64,000 nucleotides of DNA from Psammoneis japonica (GCA_008632985.1 QPGO01000067.1:258142-322141); one strand, 5' to 3'. Positions 22,101 through 64,000 are shown, counted from the stretch's first letter. Notes: generated from the letters alone by a model not told the origin. A program made the numbers and translations.

Positions 22101-23480
22101 CAATGCTTGTTTCAGTCACTGTCACAAGCACAACAGCTTGCAGCATGGCTGTGCTTGCTGCTTGCTGTTGCTCAAAGATCATTTGTGCTGATCATGAATT
22201 TTTCTTGGCTTGACATGCCCATCTTTTTTCATGCTTCCATCTGCCAAGAGACCAGGAAAAATTGGGCTGGCAGATTAATTTCAGGTTCAGAGGATTTGCT
22301 CCCTTTTTTTGTTTTTGCATTCAAAAAGTCTCTTGTTGTTGCCACACAACAACAATTTCCCCTGCTGTGCCTCCATGAGGGGGCCGATGAAAAAGAAATC
22401 AGCTCTGTGAATTTGCACAGGTGTGTGCTGCTTGCCAAGGCAAACTGAGGGCATGGATTTGACACCTGCAGAGGTGACTTTGGACATGTTTCATTTGTGC
22501 TCCATTTTGCACACAGTTTCAACCCAAGCAAAACCCCATTTGACAACATTTGCATGTTCGTCATTCAAAGTGAGCAACTCCAAAGTCAAAAGCCAATCTT
22601 CTGAACAAACAAGTTGATCCACAGAACCCAAGCCTCCAGTGGAGACCAGGGTGCACTCTGGGAAAGGTAAAAAAATCTTGCCATGGAAGCCACTGCTGCC
22701 TGGAACTCAAGTGTTTTTCTCCAAGCATGGCAAAGAACACTCCAGAAGCTGCAGCTCCTGGAAGCTGAAGCACAGCTCTTTTTCCCCTCTCCACAGCTGA
22801 CGTTTTTGCATTGCCTTTGTTGGTGTGTTTGGTGCTGGGCAACAAAAGAGCTTTGGAAGAGAGTGGGGAAGTGCTCCAGTGCTGATTGACCATGCTGAGG
22901 AAAGCATGGCAGTTGACACATGTCCTCATCCTGTGTTCTCTCCTGTTGTTTTGATGAGTTTTGTTGCAGTTTGTCACTTGCCTGTGTGAAATGTGAGCAC
23001 ACCAGGTGTGTGCCAACTTCTTTGTTTCCAATTTTGACTGCTTCATTCTTTCACTGCATTGCCCCTTGCTGTTTCTCTGCAGTGCAGGCAACAAGCCAAA
23101 AGAACATTGGCTGGGCTTTTTGTGTCAGCGCAGGGACATGCTCAACCCACACATGCCAAGAAAGCAAGAGCCCACATGAGAAAGATTGTCTCGGAGTGTG
23201 CTCACATGGTCGGTGCAGCATGCACAGCATGGCTTTCATTTTCACAAAGAGCCCTTTCTTGGCGACTGTTGCTTCACCGAGAACACGGGGAAGGACATTG
23301 ACAATCTTGGGGTTTGGACTAGACTGTGGCAAAAAGCGCATTCGTGTCTGAGGTGCGCAGCTGCACCGTGAGAGGTGCGCACGCACAGCGGGAGGCCCGA
23401 TTGTTTGCCTTCCGAGATCAAGATCGCCCCGTCATGGGGCCACACCCTGACTTCGAAGCGGCCAGGGGGCGTGTCAGTGT
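19170..23480. mobile_element. TpA-depleted decayed repeat block 2, element class not identified
   Basis: About 8 TA in 4.3 kb by eye, CpG-poor core, only short Cys/His-rich Tyr-poor ORFs; TE origin inferred from similarity in composition to blocks 1 and 3. Confidence 0.6.
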
Positions 23481-23772
23481 GCCTAGACCAAGGAGGTACC
23501 GCAGTCCTTTTGTGAAAATGCAGTAACACTCTACCAGGTAGGTAGGGCCTTATCATAGCATGGCAAATCCTTGGTCCGAGCTCTCATAGAAGCGGTCAGC
23601 CTGAAGCTGCGTTATCAACCTAGGTAGCCCAAAGAGAACAGAAGCCTGAAGCTGTGCTAACAAATTAACAACGAAATATTTCAGGGCCCCTGCCTACAAG
23701 TAAACAGCTAAGCTAAACTGTGTCACTTCTTTACTATCATGCTTTTGGAAACAAAGCCTGGGGCCTACCAAA

Positions 23773-26693: not shown

Positions 26694-27177
26694 GCTTGTG
26701 GTCTCTATTGGAAGTTAGAAACAAGGTGGTGCCATTGCCTTCTTTAGACCATAAACGGAACTTTGTTGGAATACTCGTGATGAAAGACGAAAAAGGAGGA
26801 TGGACCAATTTTTCAGTTTTTGATCCAATTCCGTTGAGAGGAAAAACGGACACTTTCTGTTCAAACTATCAAACAGTCATAGCTCGTATATGTTTTTATT
26901 TAAATCTTTAAATTATCAAATCGATCTCGATAAATAAAATGATGGTCATTACGAGCTCCATGTGTAATAAAGAAATCCATGACGTGTACATACAGAAATA
27001 TTCGGCTTAATAATTGATGGTATAGGTGACGCAGGCTTCGTAGGTCTTACGTTGGATGATTCATACCAGGTCCTTTTTTAACGCCTGCTGGTTCACGCGC
27101 ATGCCGCGATCGAACGGTCGTGCAATGTGAAAAAAAAAACAAGAAGCGCCGACCAGTTCAGTCACCGCCATTGGCCC

Positions 27178-34803: not shown

Positions 34804-35583
34804 GCGACTTGTAGAAGGCAAAAAAGTAGAGGAGCACCAGAGCCCCTCTGCCTTGCTCTAACTGTCATTTCTCCTTTGATTTCTCCTAATAAAGCCCCTG
34901 TTAGCTGCTTACACAACAAACAGAAAACAAGAAGAATGACTGGACATAAATTGTAGTCTTTTTTTTTAGCCTTGTCTTTTTAGCGGCGCTGGCTCTCTAG
35001 GCCTAGAGTAGAGATCTTCAGCGTTCTATCTATCATCTCTCTAGAGAGAGAGGAGCTATGAGTAGAGCTACAGTACCAGGTAGCTACTAGTACTTCTACT
35101 TTACCGGTAGGGCCCTAGCTACTCTATCTTGACGATCGACGACTCCTCATCGCAGACAGGCCGCAGAACACATTTTGTTTCAGACATGGTCGCATGTGCT
35201 GTTTCACCGCGGGCGGCGCCGCGCCGCGCCGCACGAAAACGCCCGCGCTTTGGGCTCACATCACACATCACATCTCAAAGCGATGCACATGGCGGAAGGT
35301 TGACTTTTGACCAACACGCGGCTCCCCACCACTGCACTCCAACACCCCAGCTTCATCGTTGTCATTGTGTGTCTAGATAGGTAAGATATGATGGAGAGGG
35401 TACTGTAACGAGAAACAAAGACATTGTCCATGGAAGCTTCCATCACTCTTTCGATCGCCACGGAACTACGGTGTAGCGGCTTCGCTCTTCCACGTGTGAT
35501 TAATCGGCGACTCTCACATTAAAACTCGAACTGTACCCCGCGATATACTTATAGGTCATTCTCGAAACATACTATAGTTCATC

Positions 35584-42960: not shown

Positions 42961-44767
42961 ATGAGCTATCAGCCTGGTGGAGACGATGGTTTGGGTCGCT
43001 ATCGACAGGAGATGAATCAAAGGTTTGGATCCCCTGGAGAGGCGAACAAGCCGCCTCCGAGTAGGTCAAGGATGTCTGGAAATTTTTCCTTTGCCAGTTC
43101 ACGAAGACAGCAAGATAATGATGATGGTTCGAGGGCAAACAGTGGTGCTGGTGGCGCACAACGGGCGTCGCTCATGAGTAAGTTTGGTCTCCCTGGATGG
43201 GCAAAGAACGCCAAGGATGACCCCGCATTATCCGATGACGAATATTTTGACGACCATCTAGCCCCCGAGGAGAAGAAGATGGAAGAACAAGTCCAACTCG
43301 AACAAAACACAGGGGCTACCAAAGAAGGGCGGCCGTGGAGAATGAAAACAAGACTTTGGTCCAGTGGTCTCGAAAAGTCAGCCCGTAACATGTCGTCAAA
43401 TAATGGAAGGAACGAACAGAAGCAAGAGGACAACTTCGACGTTGTATCACAGTTTGATGTAGGAAGGTGGCAAGAAGTGGACAACGACACAATTTTTGAA
43501 GAAAATTTTGGCAACGTTTGGGATGATGCAACGTTCACCCCAGAGGAACACAGAGGAAAGAAATACACGTACAACTCGGGCAAAGCCACTGCGCCGCCGC
43601 CGAAAAAATACACGTATAGTGCTGGAAAGGTCTCTTCGGGTCCGAATAGGGAAAGTCTGCCGGCCGCGATCACTGAAGAGGAAGAGGAGGAGGAAGAGGA
43701 ACCAACCTTCAATAGGAGAAGAGAGCTTGGAAGAAGGCGTGGAGGTAGGAAGTCAGAACACTCGCTTCAAGTATCTGTGGGAGATACGACAGTACCTACA
43801 TCCAACTTGACTTCAATGTCTTTTGGAGATACGACGGCGCCTACATCCAACTTGACTGCAAACGGGAAGAAAGCACCAAACGAAGTTAAGAGGCGAGCAC
43901 GTGAGGGCGCCGAGCAACCCTCGAGGTCTCGCACACCGCACCAAAGGAGATACAGTAACCCAATGCCTCCTGTAGAAGAAGACGACGGGGTTGGACAGGC
44001 AGAGATGTCTATGAGGCGTTCGAGAAGTAGGGATCCGTACGATGACCAAGAACGCAAGCGAGGACAAAGGCGTGGAGAGGAAGAAGTAGGAGCTACGCCG
44101 CGGAAGTCAGAAAAGCGATCCAAAAAGAAACGAGGGGACGGTGACTCAGTGGCCTCGTCTCGTCGTAGTGCGTCTTCCCCGCATCGGAGATCAAGCAAAA
44201 TGAATGAATTGATAGAGGAACATGAAAATGAAAGAGCTTCAAGGACAAAAAAGAAATCATCGCGACGTAAGAGCTCAAGCGGAGATCATGATGCCGAAGT
44301 CAAGAAGCGTTCCAGCAAGACCAAATCAAGGGAGGAGAAGGAGTCCCCGAGAGACAAAAGCTCAAGAAAGCGACACAGTACTAGGACGAAAACTAGCGAT
44401 GACCATGAAAAATCACGCAGGCACCGGTCCACAGACGTTGATGTGCAGGAAGAAGAAGGTGAAGAGTCAAGAAGAGATCGTCGAAAAGATCCCCGTCGAA
44501 AGCAGAGACGCATCACGTCGACGCCGTTCCTCTGACGCGGACGTTCGCGAAGAGAAGAAATCATCAAGAAGATCGCCCTCCAAACCTAGAGAGGAGCGAA
44601 AATCCAAAAGGAAGTCATCACGGGCGGAGTCCAGTGACATCCACGAGGAGGAAGTAGCCCAGCCCACAAGTCAAAGAAAGAAAAGTCCAAATCAGGGGAG
44701 AAAAAGAAAAAGAAAAGAGCGTGAAAAGCGGATTGTCAAAGAAAAAATCGGACAAGCCAGACGGTGA
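42961..44767 (+). CDS. Low-complexity Arg/Ser/Lys/Glu-rich protein, apparent frameshifts near 44490-44500, 3' end uncertain
   Basis: 524 aa ORF whose composition continues in another frame (SRDASRRRRSSD); internal repeats KKYTY and GDTTxPTSNLT, each twice. Confidence 0.7.
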
Positions 44768-45986: not shown

Positions 45987-46542
45987 GTCATTCTCTGTGA
46001 TGCAAGATTATGCAGAAGACCATGATGTGCAGTTTCCGAATCGAATTTGTGACACTTTCTGTGAAAAAGTGAGAGGCTGTCCCGATAGTTCCGTTGATCG
46101 ATGAGAACTGCGACTTTTATTAGGGCTCTTGGATTTGTTTATAGGCAATTAGGGACGTGGCCTTTTGTATTGCCTCTTCCGTTCGTTGAAAGTGCAAAAG
46201 AGGCTCTAACCTCTCAAAAAGTGAGCGGCATCAGTGACGTTTACATCGCCGTCGAGTCTTGCTTCCTGCACTTTCGCGCATTCGCATAGGCTCTACGGAG
46301 ATTCTACCAAAGATTCGAATCAGTCGTGGTAACGTCAGAAACACGTCATCCACGTGTGGGGTAGATTTTCAGTCGAATGATTCGTCAACGTACCCACCCC
46401 ACCGACGGAATTCTTTTTATGTTTTTTGTTTTTTGCAACGTTGGGTTGTGTTGTGGATCCTAAGAGTACGCTTTTGCATTCTTAGAAGCAAGCTTAGGAG
46501 TACCGGTATTCTTCATCGCACTCTCATTGTCATTCTCACATT

Positions 46543-48311
46543 ATGAATATTTCAAGAGACAGCAGCAGCAGTGACGATCTTCAGGAGCCATTTCTCGATG
46601 AAAATCACGTTGTCGAAAGCAACGAGAATAGTTCAATTGAAAAAGATATCATCATTCCTCGGTGGCTCCTCTGTCGAAACCGTTCCGACCAACCACCTGT
46701 AAAAATCAATCATAATGTCGCTCTGAATTTGCTGGTTTGTGTTGCATACGGTATCGCCGATTCCCTCTGGACTGGAACAGTCATTGCAGCCTACCTGAAA
46801 CGTCTAGGTCAAGGTCGAAACTCACCCGTGGGCGATGTTGAGGCGGCAAGCGGCTTGGCAAATCTCATTAGTGCCTTGCCGGTTGGATACTTGGCTGACA
46901 AGATTGGCCGAGCAAAAGTGATTCGCGCCGGTGGAGTTCTAATTGCAGTGACTGCAGTCGTTCATATTTGGCTATTGGACTGGATCGGAGTCAACCCTTC
47001 AAACATGTTCTCAGCATTATTTCTGCAAAATCAACAGGACAAGGAGTTTTGGTATATGGGCGCCGTCATGTCAATGTGGGGGATAGCTGGTGGAGTCGTA
47101 AACGGACCAGCGCAGGCATTGTATGCAGACTCTACACCGGCTGGACAACGATCAATCTATTATACCTATCTATTTGGGGCTTACTTGTTATCATCGTGTG
47201 TTGGGCCTCTCGTTTCCATTGTACTGTTTCAAACCCTTGGAGATGATTGGAATTTGTATGACTTGAGAATTGTGCTTTATGTTGGTTTGGGATTGGAAAT
47301 GGTGAATGCAGTTCTGATGATGTTCTTTGACGACCGAAAAGCTCTGGAGGAGGGCTGCGATTCAGAGGATGCAACTGGTGAAGTAGCAACGGAAAACGGA
47401 GATGACGAAGTACCCTTAGCATCAGGGCTGGATGATGGACACGATCAGTTGGTTGACACCGGAGACCACTGCGAAAGCATCATAAAACGACGCAAATACA
47501 TTCCGTACATTATCTTTTGTCAGGCTCTCATCTTTTCCATCGGTTCCGGAATGACCGTAAAGTTCTTCCCGTTGTTTTTTAAGGACGAAGTCAAAATGTC
47601 TCCGACGCAAGTTCAGGTAATTTACGTGCTGGTGCCGCTCTCCATGGTCGCCTTGTCTGGAGTAGGTCAAAAGCTGGCAAAGACGGGCTTTGGTCGAGTT
47701 CAATCGGCAATAGTTCTGAATACCTGTGGCGTGTGTTGTCTCTTTTCCATGGTTCTCTTCAAAAGTTTCTTGGACTCGAATCCCTTTATCCTGGTACCAA
47801 TCTATATCATACGAACGGCTCTCATGAATTGGTAAGCGGGACGCACAGTGAAAGCCCTAGCTCTTTGTCTCAACGCCTGGTTGTCTCATCTTTTTGTCTG
47901 CAATGCGTTTTGCATTCTAGTACATATCCCCTTCAGGAATCTATATTGATGGACTTTGTTCCCAAGAATGAACGTGCGCGGTGGAAGTCATTGGATTCGA
48001 TCGCCGTGTTTGGATGGTGTGGCAGCGCTGCGTTTGGCGGATGGTTGTCAGATCGGTATGACTATACATACACGTTCTTTATCACTGCACTGATTCAAAG
48101 CGCGGGTATATTGTGCTTTGCCCTTCTCTTGCCATTGGTACCACGACGCGAGGACGATTTGAGCTCAAATAATAATGTCAGCAACACAAGCAGGCCAGCG
48201 ACAAGTGCTCAGCAGCAATCTCTCAATGAAAATGGAGACACCCACAGTGAGATGTCAAACCAGGTCGATCTCGAGAAGCCTCTCTTAGGTCCAGCGGAAA
48301 GTCTGGAATAG
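46543..48311 (+). CDS. MFS transporter, 1 intron
   Basis: PVGYLADKIGRAKVI motif A, multiple TM segments; intron about 47832-47919 joins ALMNC|TYPLQESILMD; GGWLSDRY. Confidence 0.9.
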
Positions 48312-48637
48312 AAAATACTTTCTTGACAAACCCTTACCGTAGGCCCTCTAGAGTAATTCTTTTTCTAACTCTAGAATAGAGAGGGCCCTACGGAGAGTAC
48401 AGTAGAGTAGCGCCTGTAGCTAAATAGCAAGAGTGCATGGCCGTACAGTACAACGAAAAAGGGAAGAAAAGAGGGGAGTTCGTTCCTCAAGTGTCCACAA
48501 AATCCGCGCGAGCGTTGGGCTATCGCCAAAACGGCGTCATCATCGCTCCTTTCCTTTTTCGTTGCTTCTGATCTTGCACATTAAACACACTGTTGATCAC
48601 AGGAGAGATCAAAACACTCTTCCAACATACATCAGCC

Positions 48638-49973
48638 ATGGCGCTCATTCTGGTTGGCACAGCCGCGTATGCTGCTTATAAAGCAATGAGCGAGAATGAG
48701 TCTCCGTTGGATCCCGAGATTCCTCCTCTCGACGAATTGAAATCAATTTCCTTCCTTCCCCTTGAACTGGCACTTGGCTTGATGGAAGCTCCCATTCATA
48801 CTATTTCCTTCTTTGAAGGAAATTACAAAGAAGTGGCAAAGACTTTGGAACAACGCATCAAGGATATACTGTATGTGAATCCGTGGTTGGGAGGGTGGCT
48901 TTGCAATGATACTAGTAGAAAAGAACTCAAACTCTACTACGATGAAACGGGTGTCAACAAGGCACCAGGGACGTTTCAAGTCTTGAGCCAGGGCAGATTG
49001 CACTTTCCAAGCATGTTCCCTATATGGAATACGACGAAATCTGAAAGATTCTAGGACCAAAGTACCTCATAATCATGATTTGCTGGGAAAGAATGAGGCC
49101 TTGTGGCAAATCAGTGTCATTCCGGATTCACAGAAACCTAATGACCGCTTTGCCATTGTGGCCAGCATGTCGCACATAGCAGGTGATGCCTCTCTATTTT
49201 ACAAATTATTCGACATGCTAGCTCCTCACGTGGAAGTTGTCGCTCTCAATCCTGAACGTCGTCAAGTCGTTACCGACCAAGTTGAAGAACTAATGGGAGC
49301 TTCTGAAATGACATACGTATCCAAGGCAATTTCCAATCCGCTCTGGGACTATACACAAAAAGATGCAGATCCAGTTCAGAGTAGTATCTTTTATGTTTCC
49401 AATGAATGGCTGGAACGACAACGCAGTTTACATGTAAATGGAGAGCAACCCGTATCGGACCACGCATTGCTCGCTTCGACGTTTTTCATCGTTGCCAAAC
49501 CGACGGTCGGATTCAAGATGCATCAGCTTCGTGAACGACTTGAAGATGTGCAAGAGACTGATGCCGGTAATTATCAAGTTTCCATTCCATATACGGAGTA
49601 CGACTATTCCTCACCAGAATTGATTCAGCAATCCGAAAAGGTGTTACGGCGGTGTGGCGAGTACAATCAAGCTCCATTGCCAAGTGCCAGTTGGAACTCA
49701 ACCTATTCAGTAATGACCGATTGGTCTTCCTTTTACACCGAGCCAATTAATCTTGGTGATGGCCTGCAGGAAGTTCTGCACCTGCCTTTGTACAGCACTG
49801 AGGAACTCAAAGTTATTCCGAGCAAAATGTCACTCTTTTGCGTTTTTGCGGCATCTCAACAGCATGACGATTCTCACAAACGACGAATCGGTGTTTCCAT
49901 TGTAGCTCCTCGATCCATTATTGTTGCGATTGAAGAGAGCGGGATTGTGGATGAACCCATTGCAAGGCGTTAG
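48638..49973 (+). CDS. CoA-dependent acyltransferase-like protein (HxxxD), two apparent frameshifts
   Basis: ILYVNPWLGG and MSHIAGDAS motifs; ORFs 48593-49054 and 49080-49973 join if single bases are restored near 48984 and 49038. Confidence 0.65.
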
Positions 49974-50978
49974 AAGATAGGTGTGCGCGCTCATGTCAGA
50001 CGACATGGAAGCTAGCTAGCTGACAAGATCTGTTTGAAAACGAGCCTTTCCATCTGTGAAAGAAGATAGTTCTACAGGCTTAATTTTACTGCTCTATGAT
50101 GCCTTAATGTGTTTCAGAAGCTCATCCACAGGAACTGCAGGAAAGCTGCCTGCTGTTCGAGAAATCAGAGCGGGCGCGATTCCACGCTGTTTCACAGCTG
50201 CACCTTTGGCATCGAGAGGCCCCTCTTGGACCCAAAAGAGTCTGGACCATCAACTTCTTTTCTTCTTGACAAGCTGCTCTCTTTTGCTAGAGCCCTGCGG
50301 TGCTTTGCGCAAGTTGTGTGTCGGTTTGAAAGCTCACATGGCATTTATCAGTGTGTTGAGCTGTGTGCTGTGTGGGCAATGTGAGCCGCATTTTTGTCAC
50401 CATGGCCTTGTCGTTTTTCGCATCGAAAATTTAGTGAGGCTCATTTTTATTTTACGCATGATTTGTAGAGCACGTGTGCACACTTGCATCAAATCTGTCA
50501 AGTTTGATGTGCTTCATTGAATGAAGTGTGAAACACTCTAAGCTTGAGGTTGTCAGGTGCGGCACACAACATGAACACTCCCCCGGGGGAGAGATGACGA
50601 CTCTTCCTGGGAGGGGTGCGAACCTTTCACGGGGGCTCCTGGAGGGCTGCAAACTTTCTTGCGGTGGCTCCTCTGGCTGCCCTGGGGGGGGGATGCAAAT
50701 TTTCTCAAAGGGTTCCCCACTTGGCTCAACATTTCTTACAACTCCTGATGCTCTGTGGTGCCCACTCCCGGCTTGGGAGGTCTGTAATTGTGGTGCCCAA
50801 CTTGCATCTTGAGGGCATGCCAATTTTCTCATGGGCATTCCTGGGGAGGTGTGGCAAAAATGACATGTTGTGTTGGAGTGCCAAGATCATGGGTGCTGGT
50901 GCAAGGAATCCGGGTCCACCAAAGAAATGACACTTTGGCTCCCAGCGTGGTGAGTTGGCAACAGCTCTCTTGGGATTT

Positions 50979-53900
50979 TCCTCTGTTGCCAATTTCTCAC
51001 CTCTACTTTCATCTCACTCTTTGGATCAAGTCATTTGGTGTGCTGCATCTCCCTGTTTGTCCATGTCAGCATCTCTGGGCATCTGCCACTGTTGTCATTT
51101 GAGTTGGAAGTTTGTGTTGACAACTTCCAGGCAACCCACAGCCACCACATCAGCCAAGGCAAGTGCAGCAAGTGTCGCAAGAAGCCTGGTGGGGTCCCCT
51201 TTTAGTGGCACTGGCTTGCCAGCTCAGTGCTCACTCTAAAGAGTGAGAGGTGGGAGACACTTGTTGATGACAAAGGCCCAGGGAGCATTTGACCAGAAGG
51301 GGCAAGAAGCCTCAGAAAAGGAGCCAGATGGCTCCACAACTGGGTGTGTTTTGCACCAGCATCAGCCAAAAGCATGAGACTCTAAGTGAGAAGGCAAAGG
51401 CCATGGCAGCCTTGGCATTCCTGGCATGGAAAAGAAACAAGATGGTCTTCAAAAAAAGGGCAAATGGTTTGTGAAGGCAAACTGACAAGAGCACAGCTGG
51501 ACAAGGATGAGTCAGCCAGTCAACAGAATTGTCAACAACAAGTGCTGATGACAGCTGTTGTTGATGCTGTAGAAGAGCATGACATGATGAGCACCAGTGT
51601 GCCAAGTGCATTCACTCAAAAGTTGATGTCGGAGCCTGAGCAAGGCAAAGACCAGATCATGATGAAGATTTCTGGAGCATGGGTCGACATGTTGGCAAAC
51701 ATTGACCCCAACCCACACAGACCATCATTTGTTGTCATGGAAAGGGAAAAAAGAGTCCCCTGTGATTGAGCCACTGGAGAAGTGTGCAGTGCATTTGTTG
51801 CAGCTCCACTGTGGTGCAAGACATTTTGCAAAGACTTGGAGAAGATCAAGCTCAAGTTTGGCCCATGATGCAGTCCATGCACTGCCAACCAAGAAGCAGT
51901 CAACGGCAAACAGCACAAGCCATGCCAACCTGAAAACAAATGACAAACTCACAAGCTGGCTCAACACAAAGCATGGAAGCCATGGAGAAGCTGTGGCGAC
52001 ACAAGGAAAGAAAAGCATGGCTGCCATGAAGTGACCAAATTTCTGGGTGCAAAATGAAGGGGTCCATCTGCTTTTCTTTTTGCTGAACATCAATTTGTGT
52101 TTGTGCTGGCAGCTGTTTCAGTGTGAAGCAACCTTGACAACACATGTCTGAGATTTCAAATTTTCCATGACTTGTGGAGCAAAATGCAATGACAACAGCG
52201 GCCATGAATGCATTGCTCCACCAGTGGCCACAAACTCACCATGAGACTCTGATGTGTGTTGACAGCTTGCATTCACATCACATGTGTGTGACTTTTTGAG
52301 TTTCAAAGTTCTTTGACAATGGAGAAAACACCTGAAACAACCACTTTTCTGCCTGTCACTTTTGACTGCATGAGCCCAGAATGAGCCAACCACACTCACA
52401 TGCAGGCATGTTTCTGTTCTCCCACAAATGAGTTCATGACATGCAACATGCTGTTGATTGTCACATCTCTTGAAGGTGATCCCATCAAGAAAGTGGCATT
52501 TGCAGAGTTGCCATGGTGAGGTGGTGTTGTCTGTGGCTTTCCTGTGGCAAATTTGCACCAATTCTGAGCCATGCTTGTTGAGTTGGCAAGGATGCAGCAT
52601 TTGCCAGTGCACATGACAGGCCCACCATTCTCCTCAGTGGCAGTGCCTGCAGCAAAAAAATCATCATTTGGCAAAAAAAACTCAGGCAAAGAAGACCTTC
52701 AAGTGACAAAGTGGCACATGGATGATGCACCATTTGCAGTGCACCCCAATTTCAAGAGCCACACAAGGAAAGCTGTGACAATGGGCAGTTTGGCAGTGCA
52801 CGCCATGTTGAAGTGACAGAAGAAGCTCAACAGGCCACCCAGAGCAGCACAATTGCTGAACTCACAAGAGTCAATGACACAGCCAGTCATGATTTTGTGA
52901 ACAAAGTTGTTTGTAGAGCACTGGGGGGGGGGGCAGTCAACAAGAACATCCTGCATCAGGACAACAAGAGCGCTGGGCCATTGGAAGCCAATGGGCACTG
53001 GAGTGCTGGGAAGCAATCCAGAGCACTTGCACTTGGCATTTTTTGTGTCAACCAAGTTGAGAAGGGCAACCTCAGAGTTGACACATGGAATGGACAGAAG
53101 GACAGGTTTGTGAAAGAAGTGGAGACATCTGTCAAGATGAGCACGCAAAGCATTTGTGGATTTGAGTTGATGTCCAAGCCAATCCTCCAACAAAACACTT
53201 TAGATTCCTGTCAGCTGACAATGGGTGCAAGACAAGGAGAGTGCAAAGAGGGTCACATCAAGATCCCTTCTTCAGTGCCAACCAAAGTGGCATGAGCTGT
53301 GTGGATGAGAAGGTTTGCACTGACAGAAGACATGCTCAAATGCACCAAACTGTGAATGGGAGAAATCAATGAAGATGTGTGTCCGCTGCTGTGCCAATGT
53401 TTTCCATTCATGACAATGTGTCAAATGAGGTTGAAGTGTGCACCATTGCACATGAACATTTGACCAAGGAACATTGGCAGATTGTTGGTTATCAAGCCTT
53501 AAGACAAGGAAAGGCACATTGTTGCAATTGGACAATGGTGCTGAACAAACATGTGTGACAGGCTCATTGCTTGGTCAAGGGGGGTGGCAACTTGCAGCTG
53601 GCCTCAGACAAACAAGACATTGACCACTTGAGCAAATGGCCATCTGCCAGCTGTCCTGCTCATGGTGTGGATTCACCCGGGATGTGTGGTCTCCTTGTGA
53701 AGCCCAGTGCTGGTCATCCTGAGGACAGTGTGAGTCATTGTCAACTCACTCAGGATGCACGTGGTGTGGTCTGTGATGCTGAGAAGCTGGCATTGTTTTT
53801 CAACCATGACGTCAATGCTCCAAGCCCTTCTTTGAGATGGACTTGTCACAACATGATGCTCTTTGAATTGGTTCCCTTGAAGGTTGACTGTTGGGTCAAG

Positions 53901-54490
53901 GGTCAAGGAGCTGTTGCTCTGTTGGAAAGGATTTGCAGTGCCAGCACACTGGGCAATTTGTGGAGAGTGTGCACGGAACAGCCAGCCAGCTCAATGACAT
54001 GATTGACTTCTTTCCAATGAGGGGTGACATGCTGGCCTGCACTGTTGCAATCTGGAAGGCTTCAGTGCTGAGGCAATGACAGACCACACTGGTGCTGATC
54101 TCCCCCCATGTCATCACTCCCAATTTTTAGAAACACCAATGACATGTGAGCAACAGGAATGCATTGGAGCATCCAGGTCATGGCGCTGCACAGAACCTGG
54201 GCCCATTGAAGCAAAGATTCTTTGTTCTTTGACAAGGTGAGTTGGTGTCTGTTGCTTGAGGACTGTCCTCTGCTGCCAATCTCTCACCTCTGCTTTTGTC
54301 TCACTCTTTGCAGTGAGTTGTTTGGTGAGAAAATCAATTTGTCTGTTGTCATCACCATGTGCCTGCCGCTGTTGCTGTTTGAGCTGGAAACTTGTGCTGA
54401 CAACTTCTGGGCAACCCACAGCCAACACAGCAGCCAAGGCAAGTGTGGAGAGCATCGCAGGATGAAGCCTGGCAGGGCTCCCTTTTGGTG
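50979..54490. repeat. Two diverged direct copies of about 230 bp (about 50979-51210 and 54267-54490)
   Basis: Shared ctcacctct, tctcactctttg, gacaacttc, ggcaacccacagcca and cagccaaggcaagtg segments in the same order. Confidence 0.85.
51400..53100 (+). mobile_element. Degenerate Ty1/copia (CoDi-like) RT and RNase H
   Basis: VLMTAVVDAVEEHDMMSTSVPSAFTQ, IMMKISGAWVDML, LWCKTFCKDLE, KWHMDDAPFAVHPNFKSHT, SSTIAEL, ILHQDNKSA, SAGKQSRAL. Confidence 0.9.
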
Positions 54491-55019
54491 ACGTCAACTT
54501 GCCTGGTGCTCAAAAAGTTGAGGTTTGCAGTGGTTCCTGATGCCTCGCCTGTGCAAACTTCTCGCGTCTGAGTCTGGGGGTGAGCACAAACTTTCTCAAA
54601 ATGCAGCACAAGTGCAGCATGCATTGTTTGTCAAGTGAAAGGAATTGTGCATGTTCACAATCACATGTTGTTGTGCACATTAATTGCACCACAATTGTGG
54701 ATGCACGCAAAGGACAGATCAATCACACAAATGTGATTGATGTTGAAAATTGCAGGTGCAATTGAATGATGATGATGACACACAAGAGATGTCAATGTTG
54801 ATTGCATCTGGACAACATGTTGTCACAATCTAATTCTCCACAAGGCCTTGAGTCCACAGAAGCAGTGCAAAAGCTTTGGGCCATTGAGAACTCCTTTGGA
54901 GAAACTTCAAATCTCAGAACAAAATCTAATCCCACAATTTTCCACTTGTGTTGTGATTTGTTCTACTTTCATTTGCACCATTTCTTTGAGCACAGTGAAG
55001 AAAACAAAAACACAAAAAT

Positions 55020-55750
55020 GAAGCTTTCACCTCACAGTGCAGTTGACAAATCTTCCATCAAGCAGGAGAAGATGGTTCCTGTGCCATTGGAGTTGATTTC
55101 TGAGCTGAAGATGCTCAAACTGAGTCAGTGCCTCAAGACGGAGCAGGGCTTTCACCCCAAGGACAAGCAAAGAGAGTTGCATCTGCATGGTCAATGTCAA
55201 GCACTGCAACAAACAAGGAGTACGACATGTCACCAAAGTTTTGGTTGGACAGAACATTCACAAGCAAGCTGGTGAGTTCCGGCTCAAGCATGTGTTGTTG
55301 CAGGGAGATTTTGTTCAAGTTTTTGAGAACAAGGTGACAAACACAGATGACGAAGAAGCCAAAGGAGCCTTCAAAAAATGCCTGCATTGTCTCTCAAGCC
55401 ATGTCTTCCTCAAGAATGCACTTCAGAACCAGAAACAACATCTGCGTCATAATCTCAAGAAACCAGAGTCAATGAAGATTCAAGAAATTGCCACGTGGAC
55501 TCAGGAGGTCATGTGGACTTGAAGTTCTGTCCCCCCTTTGAAGATGACCAACAGCTGGAAGAAGATGAGCTCAAGGATGTTGTGTGCAATCATGCACCTT
55601 GCAAATGGTGGCGTCAGTCAACTGCACAAGGTTTCAAAACTTTGGATCAAAACCTTCAACAAGTTGGTTGAGTTTTTGGAACGTCTGGAGGTTGCAGAGG
55701 ACATCTTTGCCACCATTCATGTCAAGGGCAATGCCAACAGCAAGCCTGAT
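55020..55750 (+). mobile_element. Degenerate gag-like ORF of an LTR retrotransposon (probably gypsy)
   Basis: LLQGDFVQVFEN, CLHCLSSHVFLKNALQNQKQHLRHNLKKPESMKI and LVEFLERLEVAE resemble diatom gypsy gag sequences. Confidence 0.55.
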
Positions 55751-56699
55751 TCCAAAATCAAAAGTGGGCTTCAATGTGGTCCCAAAATGGTCACCTGCAA
55801 GGCACCAATGTTTGCAACATGTTTCCGTGCTTGACCAGAGTGATGGTTGTAAAAAATTCCACATGTCTGCCCAATTTTCCTGCCAATCTTCTTGGTGCAT
55901 GGACATTGATTCTTGTCACAGACAAGTTGTTGGTTTGTGGATCATTTGATCAATTGTTCTCATTTTGAGCTGCCTGTTGTCCATTTTGTGTGCACATTGT
56001 TAAACTTGTCAAGTTTGCATGCATTTCATCCCTTCTCTTTCCAATTGTCAGCTGGTGCCCTTCTGTCTTGCTCTGTTTGTGCCACATCTCTCCTTTTTTC
56101 CACTGCACACACCACAAGCCACATGCCGGCCCAAACTCTGCCAAAGACAATGCTCTCCAATGACCTTTTCAAAGGCATCCCCAGTGCTCTTCCTTCTTTC
56201 ATTGTGGCCTTGACAATGCATCTTCCTTGCTCCCCCCATTGCTCTCTGAGTGACAACTGTGCCTCATTCTCATTGGATGCATCGTTGCCTTCCAACCAAT
56301 CCCTTGGTTCAAGCACCACAGGATTGTTGTCCCTGTCTCTTGATGATGGCAATCCATCCTCCCTCTTTCCTGATGGCAGCAATCATGAGCATCAACCTCC
56401 CACTCATGGTGACCCCTCCTCCGCTGAATCGCTGTTGGAATTTTCCTTGACAACGCCTCTGCCAATTCTCATGCTGTGCCACAGCCTGACAAACTCAGTG
56501 CTGGGGTGTCTTGCCCCAGTGCCAAGTGGTGAGCACATTTTTATGATGACATTCTTCTCCTTGAGGAGGAGTTTGATGTGTTCTCAGCACAACAATCTGT
56601 GTCATCCTCTTCCCCCCCTGACAATGACAAGGACAACAAAGGACTGCACTGCTTTGATGCACTTGAGTTGGAGGTGATGGAAGAAGCTCAACTGTTGCA

Positions 56700-59540
56700 A
56701 CCTCCCTGCATTTGAGACACCAATGCCACCAAAAGCTTTGTCCTGTGGAGGAAGAGTTGGTTGTGATGATGAAAAAGCATTGTCTTTCCCACGGTTTGCA
56801 CAAGGCTTTTCTTTCCTGGGCTAAATGTGCCAAGGAAAGTGACTGTGAGTGCAAGTCTCTCTCCTGCTCTGCAGCCTTGCAACGCATGAAAGCCAAGCAT
56901 TTTGATTTTGTTGGACCAGAGCTCATTTGCTCCACAGTGAACATGGGTCCTGATTTTTCCTTTCTGCACTCTTGTGTGAAAAGGGCATTTTGTGATCCCC
57001 AGGTTGTCCAGTCTTGTCAGTGAATGCACAATGAGAAGCGCTGCCCCTGTTGCTGCTCTCTCAACACAGGCAACTGGTGGAAGCAAGTGGAGCATGATCT
57101 CAAATCTTCCCTTGCTCAACTCGGCAATGGCTGCCCATCTGGGTCACATCATGTTTGCCCGGTTGTGCTTTTTGATGATTCTGCCCTTTGTGACAACATT
57201 GGTCATTTGCAAGCACAACCTGTTTTTTTTGACATTGGGAAATTTTAACAATCTCAAATCTTCCCTTGCTCAACTGGCAATGGCTGCCCATCTGGGTCAC
57301 ATCATGTTTGCCCGGTTGTGCTTTTTGATGATTCTGCCCTTTGTGACAACATTGGTCATTTGCAAGCACAACCTGTTTTTTTTGACATTGGGAAATTTTA
57401 ACAATGAGTGTCATCACAGCCACTCCCTTTGGTCAATGTTGGAAATGGTGCTGCTGCACCCAAAGACAAGCAATGAGCACACCGCCAACCATCAGTCAAA
57501 GCTCAGACAGGAGACGCACATCAAGCTTTGTCACAGCACTCTGTGCAAGACATTCACTGAGTTGCTTCAACTGTCAAAGCAAAAGACTTGTTTCCCAATT
57601 GTCCTGCCATTTCTTGGCTTGGTTCACCTCCACTTTTGATTGTGCATGACAATTGGCAATGCAAAAGGCCATGATGACATGGCTTGTCACAGCAACTCCC
57701 ACTCCAGTGACATTTTTCAGATGAACAGGGATTGTGACATTCCCCAGCATTTTGGCAATTGTCCCTTGTTTGCTTGCAATTTAGTCAAACAAGAGCACAT
57801 CCAGGGCACAGCAGAGGCTGCCATTGTGGCAGTGGAGGAAAAGCATCATGGCAAGGCAACTGCTGCTCGTGAGAATGGGCTCAAGGATGTTTCCCAGCAC
57901 TTGGCTCGTCCCGTCTTTTGGGATGTTCCTCACAGCAGAGGAAAGCACAGCATTTTTGGCATGCTTCCCTGGGAACTGTTGCATGCCTTGCACCTTGGTC
58001 TTTGCAAGCATCTTCTTCATGCATTCTTCAACTTGTGTCAAGTCCCAGAAAACATGTTGTCATGGTGCCACAACTGTCATGTTGACTGGGAAGCCACAAC
58101 GGATGAACAACCATCCATTGTCTTCAAGGAGCTCCCCAAGCTTTTTGACAAAGCTGAGTTTGAGAGATGCTTCAGAGTTGTGGCACATGCCTCCAAACAA
58201 CAAAGCAATTGAAAGATGCCAAGAACTCCCTTCAAGAACAGAGTGACAGACCAGACTCATCTTTCTGGCCAAGAGCATCCAGGTTTGCTGCTGGCGACAC
58301 TTGCTGCAATGAAAGGCATGCTTTCAAATGGAGATGACAGCCTTGAGCCCCCAGAGAGTCACTTTGCCCACCTGATGTTTGTGTCCTTGGGATTGGATGC
58401 AGCACTTTCCATGTCTCAAAACAAGGAAAGCTTTCTTGAGCCACTTCAGAACTGCCTTGTCAAGCATCTCCAACTGTTTCAATTTGTTGCCGGCCCATTC
58501 AGAGAGTGCTGCTCATGGTCCAGACTCCACATGTCCAAGCTCCATGGCCTTCTTCACTTTCTTTTTTTGTGCATCAGTGTGGCAACACCAACAATTTTTT
58601 TGGTGGATTCTGTGAAGCTCTTCTCAAGATGCTTCGCAAGCAACCCACCAAAAACACAAGTCGTTGGCAGGCCAGGCCAGACCTTGATGTGATGAATCGC
58701 CATCATGAGGATCTTGTGGCAAGGGAATCAGAGAAACATTTGCTCAATGCAGGTTGGCTGCATGAACAAGAGGACATGGCTCCTTCCATTGCTTCATCCA
58801 ATTGCACATGCACGGACCCCACAACAGGATTCAAACCTCACAAATCTGTGATGACGGTCACCCGTGTTGCAATTTTGGGTCAAGTCAATGGATCATGGTC
58901 TGTAAAATTTGGCAGCAAGCAGCCAGAGATGCTGTCCCATCTGTTTGTTCCAGGTGATTGTGGCAATGAATGGGTGGCCGCATTGCTGGATCATGTGGAT
59001 GATCAATGCAAAGCTTTCCCCATTGGCCTTGTCAATTTTCATTTTGGATGTGACACTCCAAGCTCTGCCAATGACAAGCATGACATCCTGAGATGTCACC
59101 CTGACTTTCACTCCCATCCAGGGAACAAAGGAGTTGGCATGACTGGGCCATGGTTAACTGGGACAACATTGAAACAAGCTGTTCCGTTGCTGCAGGTGTG
59201 TTGTTGTGGGCAACCTTTGAAAGTGAAGCAACCAGCCACAGATTGACAGTTTGTGCCATCCAATCCCTTCGAAGCTTCAAACCATCAAAAGATTCTTTGC
59301 TCACCTTTTTTGTTGGTGATGAAATGGAGTCCGATGTCCAAGTTGTTGATGCCACTGACATTTTGCCTGCTGCCTTTGTCGTCCCATCAACGAGGTCCCC
59401 ACAAGACCACTTTCCCAACAATTTGGAGGACACCACCCACTTTGTTGTGATTCCACCAAGGATTGGCTGGTGCGAAATGACCACGTCATTGACAGAGGAA
59501 TGTTTGGACACTGAACACTCAGATGAGTGTTGGTGAATGC
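56700..59540 (+). mobile_element. Degenerate Plavaka/CACTA-like transposase
   Basis: PVFLTLGNF, IGNAKGHD, PWELLHALHLG, MPRTPF, SKLHGLLHF, GNTNNFFGGFCEALLK..KQP, RCHPDF..WHDWAMVNW in the expected order. Confidence 0.65.
57097..57405. repeat. Near-perfect 154 bp tandem duplication
   Basis: atctcaaatcttcccttgctcaac starts at 57097 and 57251; copies differ by one base indel. Confidence 0.95.
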
Positions 59541-62249
59541 TTGAAACAAACAACTGAACATTTGTTTCTGTCAAATTTTAACCAACAAGCCATCATGGTT
59601 CATTGATTGTGTTGGCAGATTCCAATGACAGAGATCCCATGGACAACAATGATTCGCTGCTGTCTGTGGGGGGCTCTGTTGACAGCAAGTCACACTCAGA
59701 AAACATTTCTCCACAATCAATGTTCGTCTTTGGCGAGTTGATTAAAGACAGGTTGAGAGGTGTCTTTTGACTTGGAGAAGCACCGTTGTGCTGTTCTCTG
59801 TTGTCATCTTCAAAAGACTGTTTCTCCTTTGTTTCCAATGGCAGGTCCTCTTCTGCTGAAATGGCATCCTTGGTGTGCACATCCGAGGATTCCATTTTGT
59901 TGACCAGAACGTCTGCCTTCAACCCTGCTGATGAGGATGGGGACACAACCAAACACTTGTTTGCCGTGGTGTCACACAAAGTCTGCAGCAACGGGGTTGC
60001 ATTCTTCCCCCAAAAAGCATTGTGGCTCGGGTGTGGCATGCATCCTGGGCAGTTTGCTTTTAGCTCCAATGTGATGGGCTGAACCAACTCCTGTTTTCCA
60101 ATGCTTTTTTCCAAGGAAATGCCAAGCAACAACACATTTGACAGTTTGCAGCATTGCAAAAGTGCTTTTGTGTGTCCGTTCCATGCAACCTGAACAATGT
60201 CCCTGTGTTGTTTCACACCAAAGGTCACTTTGGGTGTTGTGCACTTTCTTCCAGTCTGTTGGTTGCACCTGACTTTGGTGTTTCCAACTCCACTGCACAG
60301 TGGGAATGGTGAAACGTCAGCCAGCACAACACACACCCCTGCTCTTGGCTTGGTCGAGCATGCGCACTTTGTTGTTGGTTCTTTCCTTGTACGAATCAAG
60401 TGTGTGTCGAGGTTGCAATGGTGTCACAATGCTTTGTGAAATGGGCAATGTCCTGGGCAGCACACTTCTGCTTGGATTTTGCCAATGGGGCCTTGGCAAG
60501 GCAATGATTGCACAAATGTGAGCATTCTTGAGAAACACCCTCATTGGCTGCATTGCTGCTTTTGGGTGCAACTGGCACATCTTCCATGTTTTGCAAGCTG
60601 TCAATCAGATCATCCTTGTGGTGCTGGAAGATGTGTGTGAGGAGCCACTTTACAGTGATCAACTGTGTGAGTGCCTCCTGGACTCAACTGTCCATGCAGT
60701 GGGTCACAGTCAAGCCATCCTTCTTGGCACAAAAATCATCAATTTTTTGGAGGCTCTGATTGCGGTCTTTCGTTGGTGTTCGAGTGCAACAGAGACATGC
60801 AACGGCAGCCAGAGGCAAGAAAAACTCCACCCACAGAGACAGGACCAATCTCCCAAAGTGACAGGTGGTGCAGAGATGGGCTGTGTTGCAACAGCATGCG
60901 ATGGCTCTGTTTTCCTTGACAGTCAGTTCAGTTCTGGCACGAGGGGCATTGAACAAGTCAACAGGAGTGCGCTGACCTGCAAAAGACAAATGAACCATAA
61001 AGCCATTGTGAGTGACAGAGAGCAGAGTCAAAAAAGAGGGGAAAAGTGTTTGCTCACCTGGACAACCGTGATTGGAACCACAGACTCTGTGATGTTTCTC
61101 AAAAATGCTGTCCAGGACTGTGGGAAACAAGGCACTGCAGGCCTTGGGCAGCAGAGTGTGTTCAATTTGTGAATGGAGGTGGGAAGCAAAGGTGTTTTGT
61201 TCTTAATTCATTGAGTTGAGGGCCGATGGGCCAACCTTCTCCCAAAAGTTTTGACGAACTTCAGGTTTGTTGAATTCATTGTTTGACCGGTCCTTGTCCC
61301 ATCAAGGCAAAGGGACATTCAGAGCCCAACACTGGCACCCAGGAGTGAGTGCCAATTCATGGTGTCACTGATCTCTTGTTTGGATGGAAAACCTGGAGAG
61401 AGAAGAGAACAACCCACCTTCAAGTTGCCCACCTTCTTTGCAAGGTTGGTCTCCAAATTTGTCATTTCACTGGCATGAAGGGTCTGTTTCTGAGCTTTCT
61501 GGAGAGAGGATGTGGTCTTGTTGGTTGTGGCAATTTTTGCACTGCAGGTGTGGTGCTTCTCCTGCAGTTTCTTGCACATCTTTTTGTTTTTGGTTTTGCA
61601 CAGGCTGAGCATCCTCCAGTGAAACAAAAGCCACATCCTGCAATCTTTGCCAGACATTTGGTTTGGGTTGATGCCATGAATGGCATGATGCTTGGAGACT
61701 TTGAGCAGATCGGCAGTCTTGCAGGAAGGGATTTTGTCACACTGCTGGAGAAATTCAACATCCTCTTTTCAGTCAGAGGGGAACAGTTCTCAGACATCTT
61801 TGGAGGAGTTGACTTCTTCATTGGTGGAGGCTAGATTGGCAGCGGCAGCTGTGGGGTCATTGGCTGGTGGAGAGCAGCTGCAGACAGAGAGCCTTGACAA
61901 CACCAAGAGCTGACCCTGGAGCCTTGCCTTGGTGGTCCAGTGGAAGCAGCTTGGCCTGGTGTTTAAGCTGAGCAAGCAGCACCTCCACCATGACCTCCAC
62001 TGTGGCCACCGGCACCACAGGTGCGACTGGCATTGTTGTGGTCAGCAACTGGTGAGTTGGTCTTCTTCCTTTTTCTTGGCGGCGTGGTCAACAAGAACAC
62101 CAAATGGAAAGAAAACAGGATGAGTGACATCCCAGAGAAGGCAAAAATGTGAAATCTGACAGCAAATGCAAGACGCAGTTCTCATCACCAGCATTGGACA
62201 AGCACAAAATGATTGACAAGATGGCGCATGTGGACAGCACTCCTTCTTC

Positions 62250-63880
62250 TTCATGTCAATGTGATGTGATCATGGGACACAACTTGATGAGCAATCTTGG
62301 GATCGTGCTTGATTTTGCAAATGAAGAAATCAAATGGGAAGATGCAGCTGTGCCAATGAAGGATGCACATGCACCATTTGATGCTGAGGGTGGTCTTCAA
62401 GCTGATTGCCAATCACATGGAGGAATCTCACACCATGAAAAGTCTCAATGACAGGGTCAACAGGATCCTTGATGCTGACTGTCACACTGCTGACCTCAAC
62501 AATGTGACTGCTGCAACAGCAACTCACCTTGCTCCAGAGGAGTGGAAGCAATTGAACTTTCTTCTAAAAAGATTCAAAAATCTTTTTGACAGTTCCTCAG
62601 GTGCATGGGCTGGAAAACTGGTCAATCTTGCATTGAAGTCAGGGGCAACCCCACATCATGCAGTGCCATTTCCTGTTCCACAAGCCTTGGAGGCAACTGC
62701 TTGAAAGGAAGTCAAAAGCCTCTGCAAGACAGGAATCTCAAGAAAAACAATCCACTTAGAATGGGCAGCTCCAACCTTTGTTCAACCTGAGAAAAATGTC
62801 GGAGTTCAATTTTTGTCCAACTTTTGCAAGCTGAGTCAGAGGTCAATGTGCACTCCGCACCCCCCACCTGACATTCAAGACATGCCGCAGAAGCTCAAGG
62901 GCTTCATGCATGCAACGTCATTTGATTTGAACATGGGATGTCATCACATTAAGTTGACACCATGCGCACATTGGTTGTGCACCATTGTGATGCCGTGGGG
63001 CAAATGTGAGCACTGCAGACTGCCTGTGGGAATTTGTGGAGCTCCAGACATTTTTCAAGAGCACATGAGTGACCTCATGGCAGGCTTAGAATTTGTCAGG
63101 ATGCACATTGACAACATGCCATGCCTGACATGTGGTGACTTGAAGGATCATCTTAAAAAGCTCAAAACAACATTTGCGCAACTTGACAAGCTGGTTTAAA
63201 GTCAATGCCAAAAAAAACCTTTTGTGAAACCCAAAGTGGATCATCTTGGGTTTCACATTTTGCAGCAAGGCATCAAACCAATCCCCCAAAATGTGGAGGC
63301 AATTCAATCTGTCGCTGCTCCCAAAATGACATTTTTTTGGCATGATCAATTGTTGTCAAGATGTGTGGCCTCAACAATCTCATGCACTTGCTCATCTGGC
63401 CAGACTCACCTCATCCAAGGTCAAGTGGCAATGGGCAAGCATGGAACAAAAAGCCTTCAAAAATGTGAAGCAAATTGTGTCAAAAGATGTGTTTTTGGCA
63501 AACCCAAATTTTGACAAACCCTTTGAGACAAGCACAGATGCAAGCAATTCTAAATTGGGTGCCGTCACATCACAAGACAAATGACCCGTTGCCTTCTTTA
63601 GCAGAAAGCCAAATGGAGCACAGATGCGACACACCACAATGGAAAAAGAGCTGCTGTCCATCATTGAAGCTCTTCTTGAGGAGTTCTGAAATGTGCTGTT
63701 TGGTGGCCAACAATTAAAAACATTTGCAGATCATGAAAACCCTGCTCATGAGAATTTTGCTGTGGACAGAGTCATGTGTTGGCATCCAACAACAAAAGAA
63801 TGCAGTCCTGAAACAATTTGCCTCATGGGCAAGGCCAATGTCATCACAGATGCAATCAGCCAACTTGCTGTGAAACAAAT
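62250..63880 (+). mobile_element. Degenerate Ty3/gypsy pol (protease end, RT, RNase H)
   Basis: CDVIMGHNLMSNLGIVLDF, PHHAVPFPVP, DLNMGCHHI, WGKCEHCRLPVG, PDIFQ, HIDN (YIDD), HLGF, TDAS, AFFSRK, EKELLSII, ANVITDAISQL. Confidence 0.95.
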
Positions 63881-64000
63881 GTAACCCATGGAAAACCTCA
63901 GCTCTGTGAAGAATTGGCAGAAAAGACAACCCCTGAGTCCCACAACAACGTCTTTCTGTCAACACACAAAGTTCTTGACACTGAACAAAAATGGGACAAA

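Follow-up and report, generated by a model that had tools for sequence, protein, structure and literature searches.

TpA loss from three repeat blocks in a 64-kb stretch of Psammoneis japonica DNA: probable TpA hypermutation of foreign DNA in a second host, saturated on retrotransposons

To our knowledge, repeat-induced point mutation (RIP) and CpG decay were formerly the sole known routes by which eukaryotic genomes mutate transposons to death. A process of another kind has since been described in mutation-accumulation lines of Bigelowiella natans, in which de novo TpA→TpG/CpA changes arose in integrated DNA of nucleocytoplasmic large DNA viruses (NCLDV) and virophages (Mettrop et al., bioRxiv 10.64898/2026.01.13.699255, 2026). 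As reported in that preprint, two integrated viral regions mutated at ∼6e-7 mutations per site per generation in some lines only, 230 of 231 changes in the viral regions were A>G or T>C, all on TpA, and the hypermutation was episodic, with the de novo rate raised roughly 1000-fold. The same source counts 124 clusters of TpA-poor, CpA+TpG-rich windows in the B. natans genome and describes its low-TpA coding sequences as enriched for reverse transcriptase (RT) and DDE domains. The mechanism put forward there, by way of hypothesis, is DNA adenine deamination by an ADAT2-like enzyme; the main text of the preprint mentions neither CpG, N6-methyladenine (6mA) nor diatoms, and gives no flanking context past TpA (Mettrop et al., 2026). 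Literature searches on TpA hypermutation and genome defense returned no relevant report besides this one. Here we analyze a 64,000-nucleotide stretch of Psammoneis japonica DNA (GCA_008632985.1 QPGO01000067.1:258142-322141; hereafter the window), in which three repeat blocks that include remnants of Ty1/copia and Ty3/gypsy long terminal repeat (LTR) retrotransposons have lost nearly all of their TpA dinucleotides. A first-pass annotation of this DNA had known of no described mechanism for such a change, a statement outdated by the preprint. The locus probably represents TpA hypermutation of foreign DNA in a second host, saturated on retrotransposons.

The limits of the blocks were set by the positions of TA dinucleotides, which place block 1 at 1–5214 (truncated by the window start), block 2 at 19166–23483, and block 3 at 50106–64000 (truncated by the window end), 23,427 bp in total. 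Together they contain 78 TA (3.3 per kb), an observed/expected ratio (o/e) of 0.05. The DNA between the blocks, 40,573 bp long, contains 1,576 TA (38.8 per kb, o/e 0.58), a rate at which ∼910 would be expected within the blocks. Block 1 retains 17 TA in 5.2 kb, block 2 retains eight in 4,318 bp (o/e 0.03), and block 3 retains 53 in 13,895 bp (o/e 0.05), confirming the strong scarcity beside ordinary neighbors on which the first-pass annotation was built. CpG depletion, a point given no stress in that annotation, accompanies the loss: the blocks contain 323 CpG (o/e 0.23, vs 0.97 between blocks), with CG o/e of 0.23 in block 2 and 0.17 in block 3, and block 1 divides into a segment from 1 to 2300 with CG o/e 0.61 and TA o/e 0.09, and a segment from 2301 to 5214 with values of 0.18 and 0.04, respectively.

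The missing dinucleotides are balanced by their transition products. CA and TG stand at o/e 1.72 and 1.82 within the blocks, vs 1.17 and 1.15 between them, and TG and CA counts are alike within each element. Total pyrimidine-purine (YpR) steps amount to 0.238 in blocks and 0.240 between them, and base composition and GC content are the same in both, so CG and TA have been swapped for TG/CA in the blocks. The TG/CA excess has two sources, TpA conversion and classical CpG→TpG/CpA decay. When a 1-kb profile was evaluated with the threshold for TpA-poor, CpA+TpG-rich windows of the B. natans preprint, the 13 consecutive windows 51001–63001 had TA o/e of 0.01–0.09 with mean TG/CA o/e of ∼1.6–2.0, and windows 1–4001 and 20001–22001 also passed.

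At ∼5201, ∼19201 and ∼23401, TA content jumps from zero to normal in one 200-bp step. Block 3 begins more gradually, its left border spanning 50106–50800 at the same resolution; the sharp borders reported by the first-pass annotation are thus found at three positions and not at this fourth one. Flanking genes exhibit TA o/e of 0.4–0.9 up to <200 bp from the block borders, and just two TA-free gaps of at least 180 bp occur outside the blocks, at 35126–35374 (249 bp) and 44395–44587 (193 bp).

Two element remnants within block 3 enabled ancestral codons to be read from homologues. The first, at 62137–63881 (+), was delimited by tblastn in three frames and corresponds to the protease end, RT and RNase H of a Ty3/gypsy Pol, collinear with its homologues. 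A search with the gypsy open reading frame (ORF) returned 61 Ty3/gypsy Pol homologues at 34–62% identity, which carry RVT_1, RT_RNaseH and rve; the integrase part of the remnant is past the window end. Pfam matches within the remnant, at 62.7–63.6 kb, are to RT_RNaseH_2 (3.9e-11) and, weakly, to RVT_1 (E=0.011), and as judged by homology the remnant fits the domain order of a Ty3/gypsy LTR retrotransposon. The second, at 51272–53082 (+), was delimited by tblastn of 150 homologues and is interrupted by frameshifts and stops. Its ORF at 51386–51766 has 329 homologues at E<=0.001, the long ones carrying RVT_2; the remnant itself falls below Pfam detection and aligns to residues ∼640–1140 of the RVT_2-bearing homologues, which identifies it as a Ty1/copia RT-RNase H remnant with an RVT_2-type reverse transcriptase.

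Conserved tyrosines were used as reporters of ancestral TA, the Tyr codon being TAY only, and for the gypsy remnant the evaluation covered 326 columns, each conserved in 15 or more homologues. None of the 18 conserved gypsy tyrosines is kept; the corresponding dinucleotides are now TG (7), CA (7), TT (3) and AA (1). The six conserved copia tyrosines are likewise all lost, to TGY (4) and CAY (2), giving a pooled result of 0/24 kept with 11 TGY and 9 CAY. In the gypsy remnant, A>G at codon position 2 occurred at 7/18 sites after T vs 1/83 after another base (p=1.3e-5), and T>C at codon position 1 at 7/18 sites before A vs 0/27 otherwise (p=7e-4). The same dependence holds across codon boundaries: ancestral first-base A (in Ile, Met, Thr, Asn and Lys codons) is now G at 18/24 gypsy positions after T vs 2/56 otherwise, and at 4/4 copia positions after T vs 3/24 otherwise. 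Control dinucleotides in the gypsy remnant were largely kept (TT 17/17, CC 20/21, GC 16/17, GG 16/19). Arginine codons changed as CpG decay predicts. Of 23 conserved gypsy arginines, 7 remain (six as AGR, one as CGA); among the 16 that changed, 13 now read CAN or TGN, as do all six changed arginines of the copia remnant. These results strongly support the interpretation that TpA was once present in the elements and was then converted to TpG/CpA on either strand. A comparison of A→G changes at TpA with those in other contexts had been set beforehand as a test that could refute the idea, and the excess at TpA is large (the 7/18 vs 1/83 above). The core proposal of the first-pass annotation, that a host process turns TpA into TpG/CpA on either strand of repeat DNA, is thereby backed by the codons of intact homologues, and also by the discordant copies described below.

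The TA dinucleotides that remain reveal a context rule. Among the 78 surviving TA, 59% are flanked as YTAR (TTAA 17, TTAG 13, CTAA 13, CTAG 3) and 3% as RTAY, whereas in normal DNA 16% of TA are YTAR and 30% RTAY. The surviving TA have flanks unlike those of the TG/CA found alongside them in the blocks (p=1.3e-12 by chi-square), and the survivors are therefore not simply new TA arising from TG/CA. Relative to normal DNA, TA survival is 0.007 for RTAY, 0.059 for RTAR, 0.064 for YTAY and 0.32 for YTAR; CpG survival is flat over the same flank classes (0.20–0.30). The products are directional as well. Gains per kb are +14.4 for RCAR vs +6.7 for RTGR, and +14.1 for YTGY vs +5.0 for YCAY, and in the symmetric flank classes the products split evenly; the outcome was the same when 1–2300 was left out. 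A two-strand Poisson fit gave cumulative hazards of 3.3 for TAT, 1.9 for TAC, 0.95 for TAG and 0.24 for TAA, and reproduced the 16 tetranucleotide counts. One rule accounts for the pattern: each strand is edited on its own at the A of 5'-TAY-3', in the order TAT>TAC>TAG>>TAA.

TA loss and CpG loss overlap but are separable. In the border zone at 4801–5214 TA is absent and CpG is already normal (CG o/e 0.79–0.83 and TA o/e 0–0.12 in 4801–5200), and normal CpG with TA loss is also found at 23201–23400 and 19201–19800, such that at three borders CpG is normal again 200–600 bp inside the TA-free zone. The opposite combination was observed outside this genome. Among 17 related gypsy loci from metagenomes, TA o/e ranges from 0.43 to 0.93 and 0/17 are depleted, which makes the TA loss a trait of this host and not of the element lineage. 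Seven of the 17 (L001–L003 and L009–L012) have CpG o/e of 0.02–0.33 with ordinary TA and look like methylation decay in other hosts; since these loci are CpG-poor yet TA-normal, TA loss is no automatic companion of CpG decay.

The interpretation that we favor, with moderate confidence, is that the blocks are old dead transposon DNA mutated in place by CpG decay together with TpA hypermutation, the latter likely through adenine deamination. On this view two transition processes, each specific to a sequence context and limited to the repeated or silenced domain, would have acted on dead Ty1/copia, Ty3/gypsy and unclassified repeats in their chromosomal form. The first would be ordinary CpG→TpG/CpA decay, presumably by deamination of 5-methylcytosine (5mC). 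The second, far more efficient, would convert TpA to TpG/CpA, with the strands acting independently and the A of 5'-T-A-Y-3' changing to G. RTAY, which presents the favorable context on both strands, would thus be wiped out; sites with one favorable strand would be channeled from YTAY to YTGY and from RTAR to RCAR; and YTAR sites such as TTAA would survive in part. For the chemistry, we consider it most likely that a nuclear deaminase, guided to chromatin that is silenced or foreign, would convert adenine to inosine in DNA, the inosine being read as G at replication. The conversions themselves, the context rule, the timing after duplication and the confinement to this host are demonstrated by the sequence comparisons; the class of enzyme, the signal that targets it and the part played by 5mC are inferred.

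The main rival to deamination by such an enzyme holds that silenced chromatin carries, at TpA, a modified base that is itself mutagenic; it would leave the same footprint, and we consider it rather unlikely. The modified base could be 6mA on both strands, or an oxidized thymine (5-hydroxymethyl- or 5-formyluracil) produced by a TET/JBP-type enzyme; deamination to hypoxanthine or mispairing with G would then cause TpA to decay much as methylated CpG does. In its favor, oxidized thymines mispair with G, TpA shares with CpG the property of being a palindrome, and the domains of TA loss and CpG loss nearly coincide, as they would if each tracked heterochromatin marks. Moreover, A>G at TpA is indistinguishable in all tests from T>C on the other strand. 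This alternative is less easily reconciled with the separability of the two losses, both in 1–2300 (CG 0.61, TA 0.09) and in the border zones. The per-strand trinucleotide rule favors a strand-autonomous editor: additive contributions of the two strands and directional products fit such an editor better than a methyltransferase that recognizes a duplex palindrome. In addition, 6mA is absent from the main text of the B. natans preprint, as mentioned above.

Duplicated sequences within the blocks were used to place the changes in time. An LTR-like direct repeat at 50949–51207 (+) and 54236–54490 (+), whose copies are 74% identical, differs by 55 transitions and 26 transversions, and its aligned YpR sites include 11 CA/TG, 2 TA/TG and 4 CG/TG or CG/CA discordances. 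A 262-bp tandem duplication at 3337–3858 (94% identical) contains 12 differences, 11 of them transitions, with 3 CA/TG double discordances and 1 CG/TG; a 174-bp tandem duplication at 4529–4885 (90% identical) contains 14 differences, nine of them transitions, with 1 CA/TG and 1 CG/TG discordance. A site at which one copy reads CA and its partner TG is to be expected only when a TA or CG common to both was converted in the two independently, in chromosomal DNA after the duplication. A 153-bp tandem duplication at 57097–57405 has 0 differences over 153 aligned columns, and because its copies are identical it is younger than the hypermutation.

This timing bears directly on the possibility that the copies arrived already hypermutated, through ADAR-like A-to-I editing of element RNA or deamination of cDNA prior to integration. 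The two identified elements are LTR retrotransposons, and ADAR favors a 5' U according to the discussion in the B. natans preprint (Mettrop et al., 2026), both as such a route would have it. Editing of RNA or of a single cDNA strand would give products in a single direction, however, and is disfavored by the sense-strand symmetry of the tyrosine codons (TG 11, CA 9). The tandem duplicates and the LTR-like pair differ in product at the same sites after duplication, the depletion runs unbroken over many unrelated fragments and unclassified DNA to a common outer border, and the B. natans mutations arose in integrated DNA during culture (Mettrop et al., 2026). We therefore regard pre-integration editing as very improbable. 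The discordant copies, together with the 0/24 retention of Tyr, also uphold the earlier argument that neither codon preference nor RT error produced the pattern.

Repetitiveness as the trigger is a separate matter. Read depth within 50201–64000 is above single copy in 23/23 bins (77.8 to 2807), vs 58–65 in seven flanking bins, and block 3 is therefore repeated DNA. Block 3 is multi-copy throughout, yet the perfect 153-bp duplication within it carries no new changes. The first-pass annotation had proposed a process targeted to repetitive DNA; a process aimed at whole domains of silenced or foreign DNA would fit the pattern equally well as one triggered by repetitiveness itself.

The bases themselves were checked against contigs of a public sequencing run, X1; one sample, with three runs, contains this DNA. 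The X1 contigs have a k-mer depth of 55–59 (∼58x), which equals that of the flanking single-copy genes, and match 50786–52125 with 8 differences and 52973–54881 with 3, in addition to further pieces. Scattered single-nucleotide polymorphisms (SNPs) separate the contigs from the window, so the contigs are not a copy of the assembly, and their reproduction of block 3 at single-copy depth makes an assembly artifact unlikely. The base check is good but not fully independent. Inside block 3, 19 differences from X1 are listed for single-copy sequence, and ten of these are CG<->TG/CA, indicating that CpG decay is still under way. In the unique genic DNA at 46001–50105 (∼4.1 kb), six single-base differences from X1 were observed, which suggests heterozygosity or a strain difference.

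An origin of the pattern in sequencing or assembly, with heavily modified bases of repeat DNA miscalled, for instance in long reads left unpolished, and TA and CG written as TG or CA, is more improbable still. Modified bases cause systematic long-read miscalls, and neither the platform of the assembly nor that of X1 is on record for the one sample and its three runs. Set against this, independent k-mer contigs at ∼58x agree across the block, scattered SNPs aside; at a palindromic site the reads of the two strands would contradict each other, and removal of >99% of RTAY with directional products is implausible as miscalling; and frameshifts and stops interrupt the elements, as in old copies. 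An intrinsically TA-poor composition of the element families, arising from codon usage or selection against TA/UpA with nothing mutated, can be dismissed even though many RNA viruses and transcripts are reported to be poor in UpA and CpG (PMC3829696), given that 0/24 conserved tyrosines are kept and 20/24 are one-step products (TGY or CAY), that related elements elsewhere have TA o/e of 0.43–0.93, and that the copies, with their frameshifts and stops, are non-functional.

Several points nevertheless weigh against in-place TpA hypermutation by a strand-autonomous deaminase. No mutation was seen happening, and the whole account is reconstructed from final states within a single 64-kb window. Homologues just 34–62% identical, and not a family consensus, supplied the ancestral states, and in the expected frequencies of TA flanks host genic DNA served as a proxy for transposable element DNA. 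The direction of products at Tyr codons is as predicted (5' Y: TG 5, CA 2; 5' R: TG 6, CA 7) but not significant (p=0.37). The mass balance assumes an approximately even strand split of CpG products, an assumption whose backing, flat CpG survival, is indirect. With its 26 transversions, the LTR-like pair may not be two LTRs of one insertion. X1 derives from one sample, possibly the assembled one, and no sequencing platform is recorded for it. Finally, the TAT > TAC order just loosely resembles the Y-A-C preference of a TadA-derived editor (as reported in PMC13109818).

A broader claim, which we put forward tentatively as a possibility short of probable, is that this locus reflects a strand-autonomous defense by adenine editing of DNA at TpA (5'-TAY-3'→TGY) operating outside the chlorarachniophytes, in an unrelated intron-poor eukaryote, and acting on whole silenced domains in a saturating and cytosine-methylation-independent manner. 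If true, TpA hypermutation would be an overlooked eukaryotic anti-transposon system, either widespread or repeatedly evolved, and its tRNA-anticodon-like context would point to a natural DNA adenine deaminase derived from TadA/ADAT.

The remaining content of the blocks was surveyed by homology and domain searches. A second, weaker gypsy remnant from the gag side (the polyprotein N-terminus) is predicted at 55223–55804 (+) by tblastn with P0032 residues 75–262 (E 7e-19). The first-pass annotation had listed four element classes; homologues confirm copia and gypsy, and the other two, a non-LTR element, for which a Cys/His motif was read by eye, and a DNA transposon, are unconfirmed. The former is a C-rich segment (41.6% C) at 190–2300 (+) that appears LINE-like (long interspersed nuclear element) by eye only. 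Its ORF at 577–1806 had no homologue among proteins of 225–718 residues, longer proteins not having been searched. GC skew in 1–2300 is -0.42, and open frames exceed 400 codons, a length to be expected where TAA and TAG cannot occur. The candidate DNA transposon in block 2 corresponds to a weak zf-Tnp_2 match at 20063–20341 on the minus strand (E=0.068). Pfam searches of 40 long ORFs returned a sub-threshold DUF809 match alone; those of 145 ORF pieces from blocks 2 and 3 returned just RT_RNaseH_2, the weak RVT_1 and the weak zf-Tnp_2; and those of 43 ORF pieces from block 1 found no credible domain. Pfam thus recognized almost nothing here, and such blocks slip past domain-based annotation of transposable elements.

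The genes between the blocks are ordinary and intron-poor, and encode a 1630-aa tricorn-like protease, MFS transporters, an HPP protein, a glycosyltransferase, and a BTRD1 plus beta-lactamase-like pair. The best homologue of the HPP protein is 55% identical to it. The protease is specified by an unbroken 1630-codon ORF at 27082–31974 (+) with Tricorn_C1, PDZ and Peptidase_S41 domains following a long acidic N-terminal extension. The pair consists of adjoining ORFs at 12795–15219 (-), with BTRD1 repeats (1.8e-29) after a signal-peptide-like N-terminus and a beta-lactamase-fold domain (1.2e-35), and resembles a secreted polyglycine-hydrolase-like protein. Just outside block 2, at 18347–18492, a 24-bp tandem repeat of ∼5–6 copies lies within the ORF at 17089–18729 (-; 546 aa) and encodes a Lys/Ser/Pro/Gly-rich repeat near its N-terminus. 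Contigs of a second run, X2, cover just 46455–50089, outside block 3, and have no bearing on silencing. One X2 contig skips an 89-bp GT...AG stretch at 47831–47919, probably a spliced intron of an MFS gene, and X2 is for this reason probably an RNA run.

Gene structure also speaks to the identity of the host relative to B. natans, whose genes contain on average 8 introns of 182 bp and whose genome is rich in (AC)n repeats (PMC13746701, Table 1). In this window ORFs run unbroken up to 1630 codons, the 89-bp intron is the one evident, and no (AC)n arrays were found; neither this intron nor the protein N-termini carried a signal of lineage. The host is therefore probably distinct from B. natans.

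Among known systems, RIP of ascomycete fungi resembles the process proposed here in that context-specific transitions destroy transposons in place as DNA, on both strands and with sharp limits at repeat edges, leaving copies unrecognizable to Pfam. The direction of change is the reverse: RIP converts C to T at CpA, which makes TpA and lowers GC, whereas here TpA is lost, CpA/TpG are made, and GC is constant. Fungal RIP is accordingly ruled out by TpA o/e 0.05, CpA o/e 1.72 and the unchanged GC. Decay of CpG driven by 5mC matches the conversion of Arg CGN to CAN/TGN in the blocks and the ongoing CG/TG polymorphism, but it covers the CpG half only, and the TA loss reaches beyond the CpG loss. 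ADAR and APOBEC3 likewise generate deaminase-type clusters of transitions in mobile or viral sequence; the substrate of those enzymes is RNA or a single cDNA strand, and their footprints are asymmetric between strands, whereas the changes here are symmetric, post-integration and domain-wide.

The chemistry proposed here is that of TadA/ADAT enzymes and TadA-derived editors, in which A is converted to inosine and read as G. The natural tRNA target of TadA/ADAT follows U33, and by analogy T-A-C is a plausible native context for this family. A TadA-8e variant is reported to edit preferentially in a Y-A-C context (PMC13109818); at this locus TAT, rather than TAC, is the strongest context. That enzymes of the TadA/ADAT family naturally edit DNA genome-wide is no more than a hypothesis in the B. 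natans preprint (Mettrop et al., 2026), and a natural DNA adenine deaminase would interest base editing. The window adds new mechanistic constraints, namely a per-strand 3'-neighbor hierarchy with directional products and separability from CpG loss. These yield an oligonucleotide-preference assay and a scan of RTAY vs YTAR survival, for enzyme finding and genome surveys.

The closest counterpart remains B. natans. In both cases A>G and T>C changes fall on TpA alone and on both strands, mobile or foreign DNA is hit and adjoining host genes evolve normally, and runs of TpA-poor, CpA+TpG-rich 1-kb windows contain RT domains, with DDE domains reported in B. natans in addition. The two differ in their targets, which are LTR retrotransposons and unclassified repeats here and integrated viruses there, and in extent, with saturation here (o/e 0.05) as against a rho of 0.45 reported for a B. 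natans NCLDV region (Mettrop et al., 2026). CpG decay alongside TA loss and the TAT>TAC>TAG>>TAA hierarchy are resolved at this locus, the main text of the preprint giving TpA only. TpA-directed A-to-G change, first reported in 2026 from one alga and there for integrated viruses, appears here to be complete on retrotransposons in an apparently different host.

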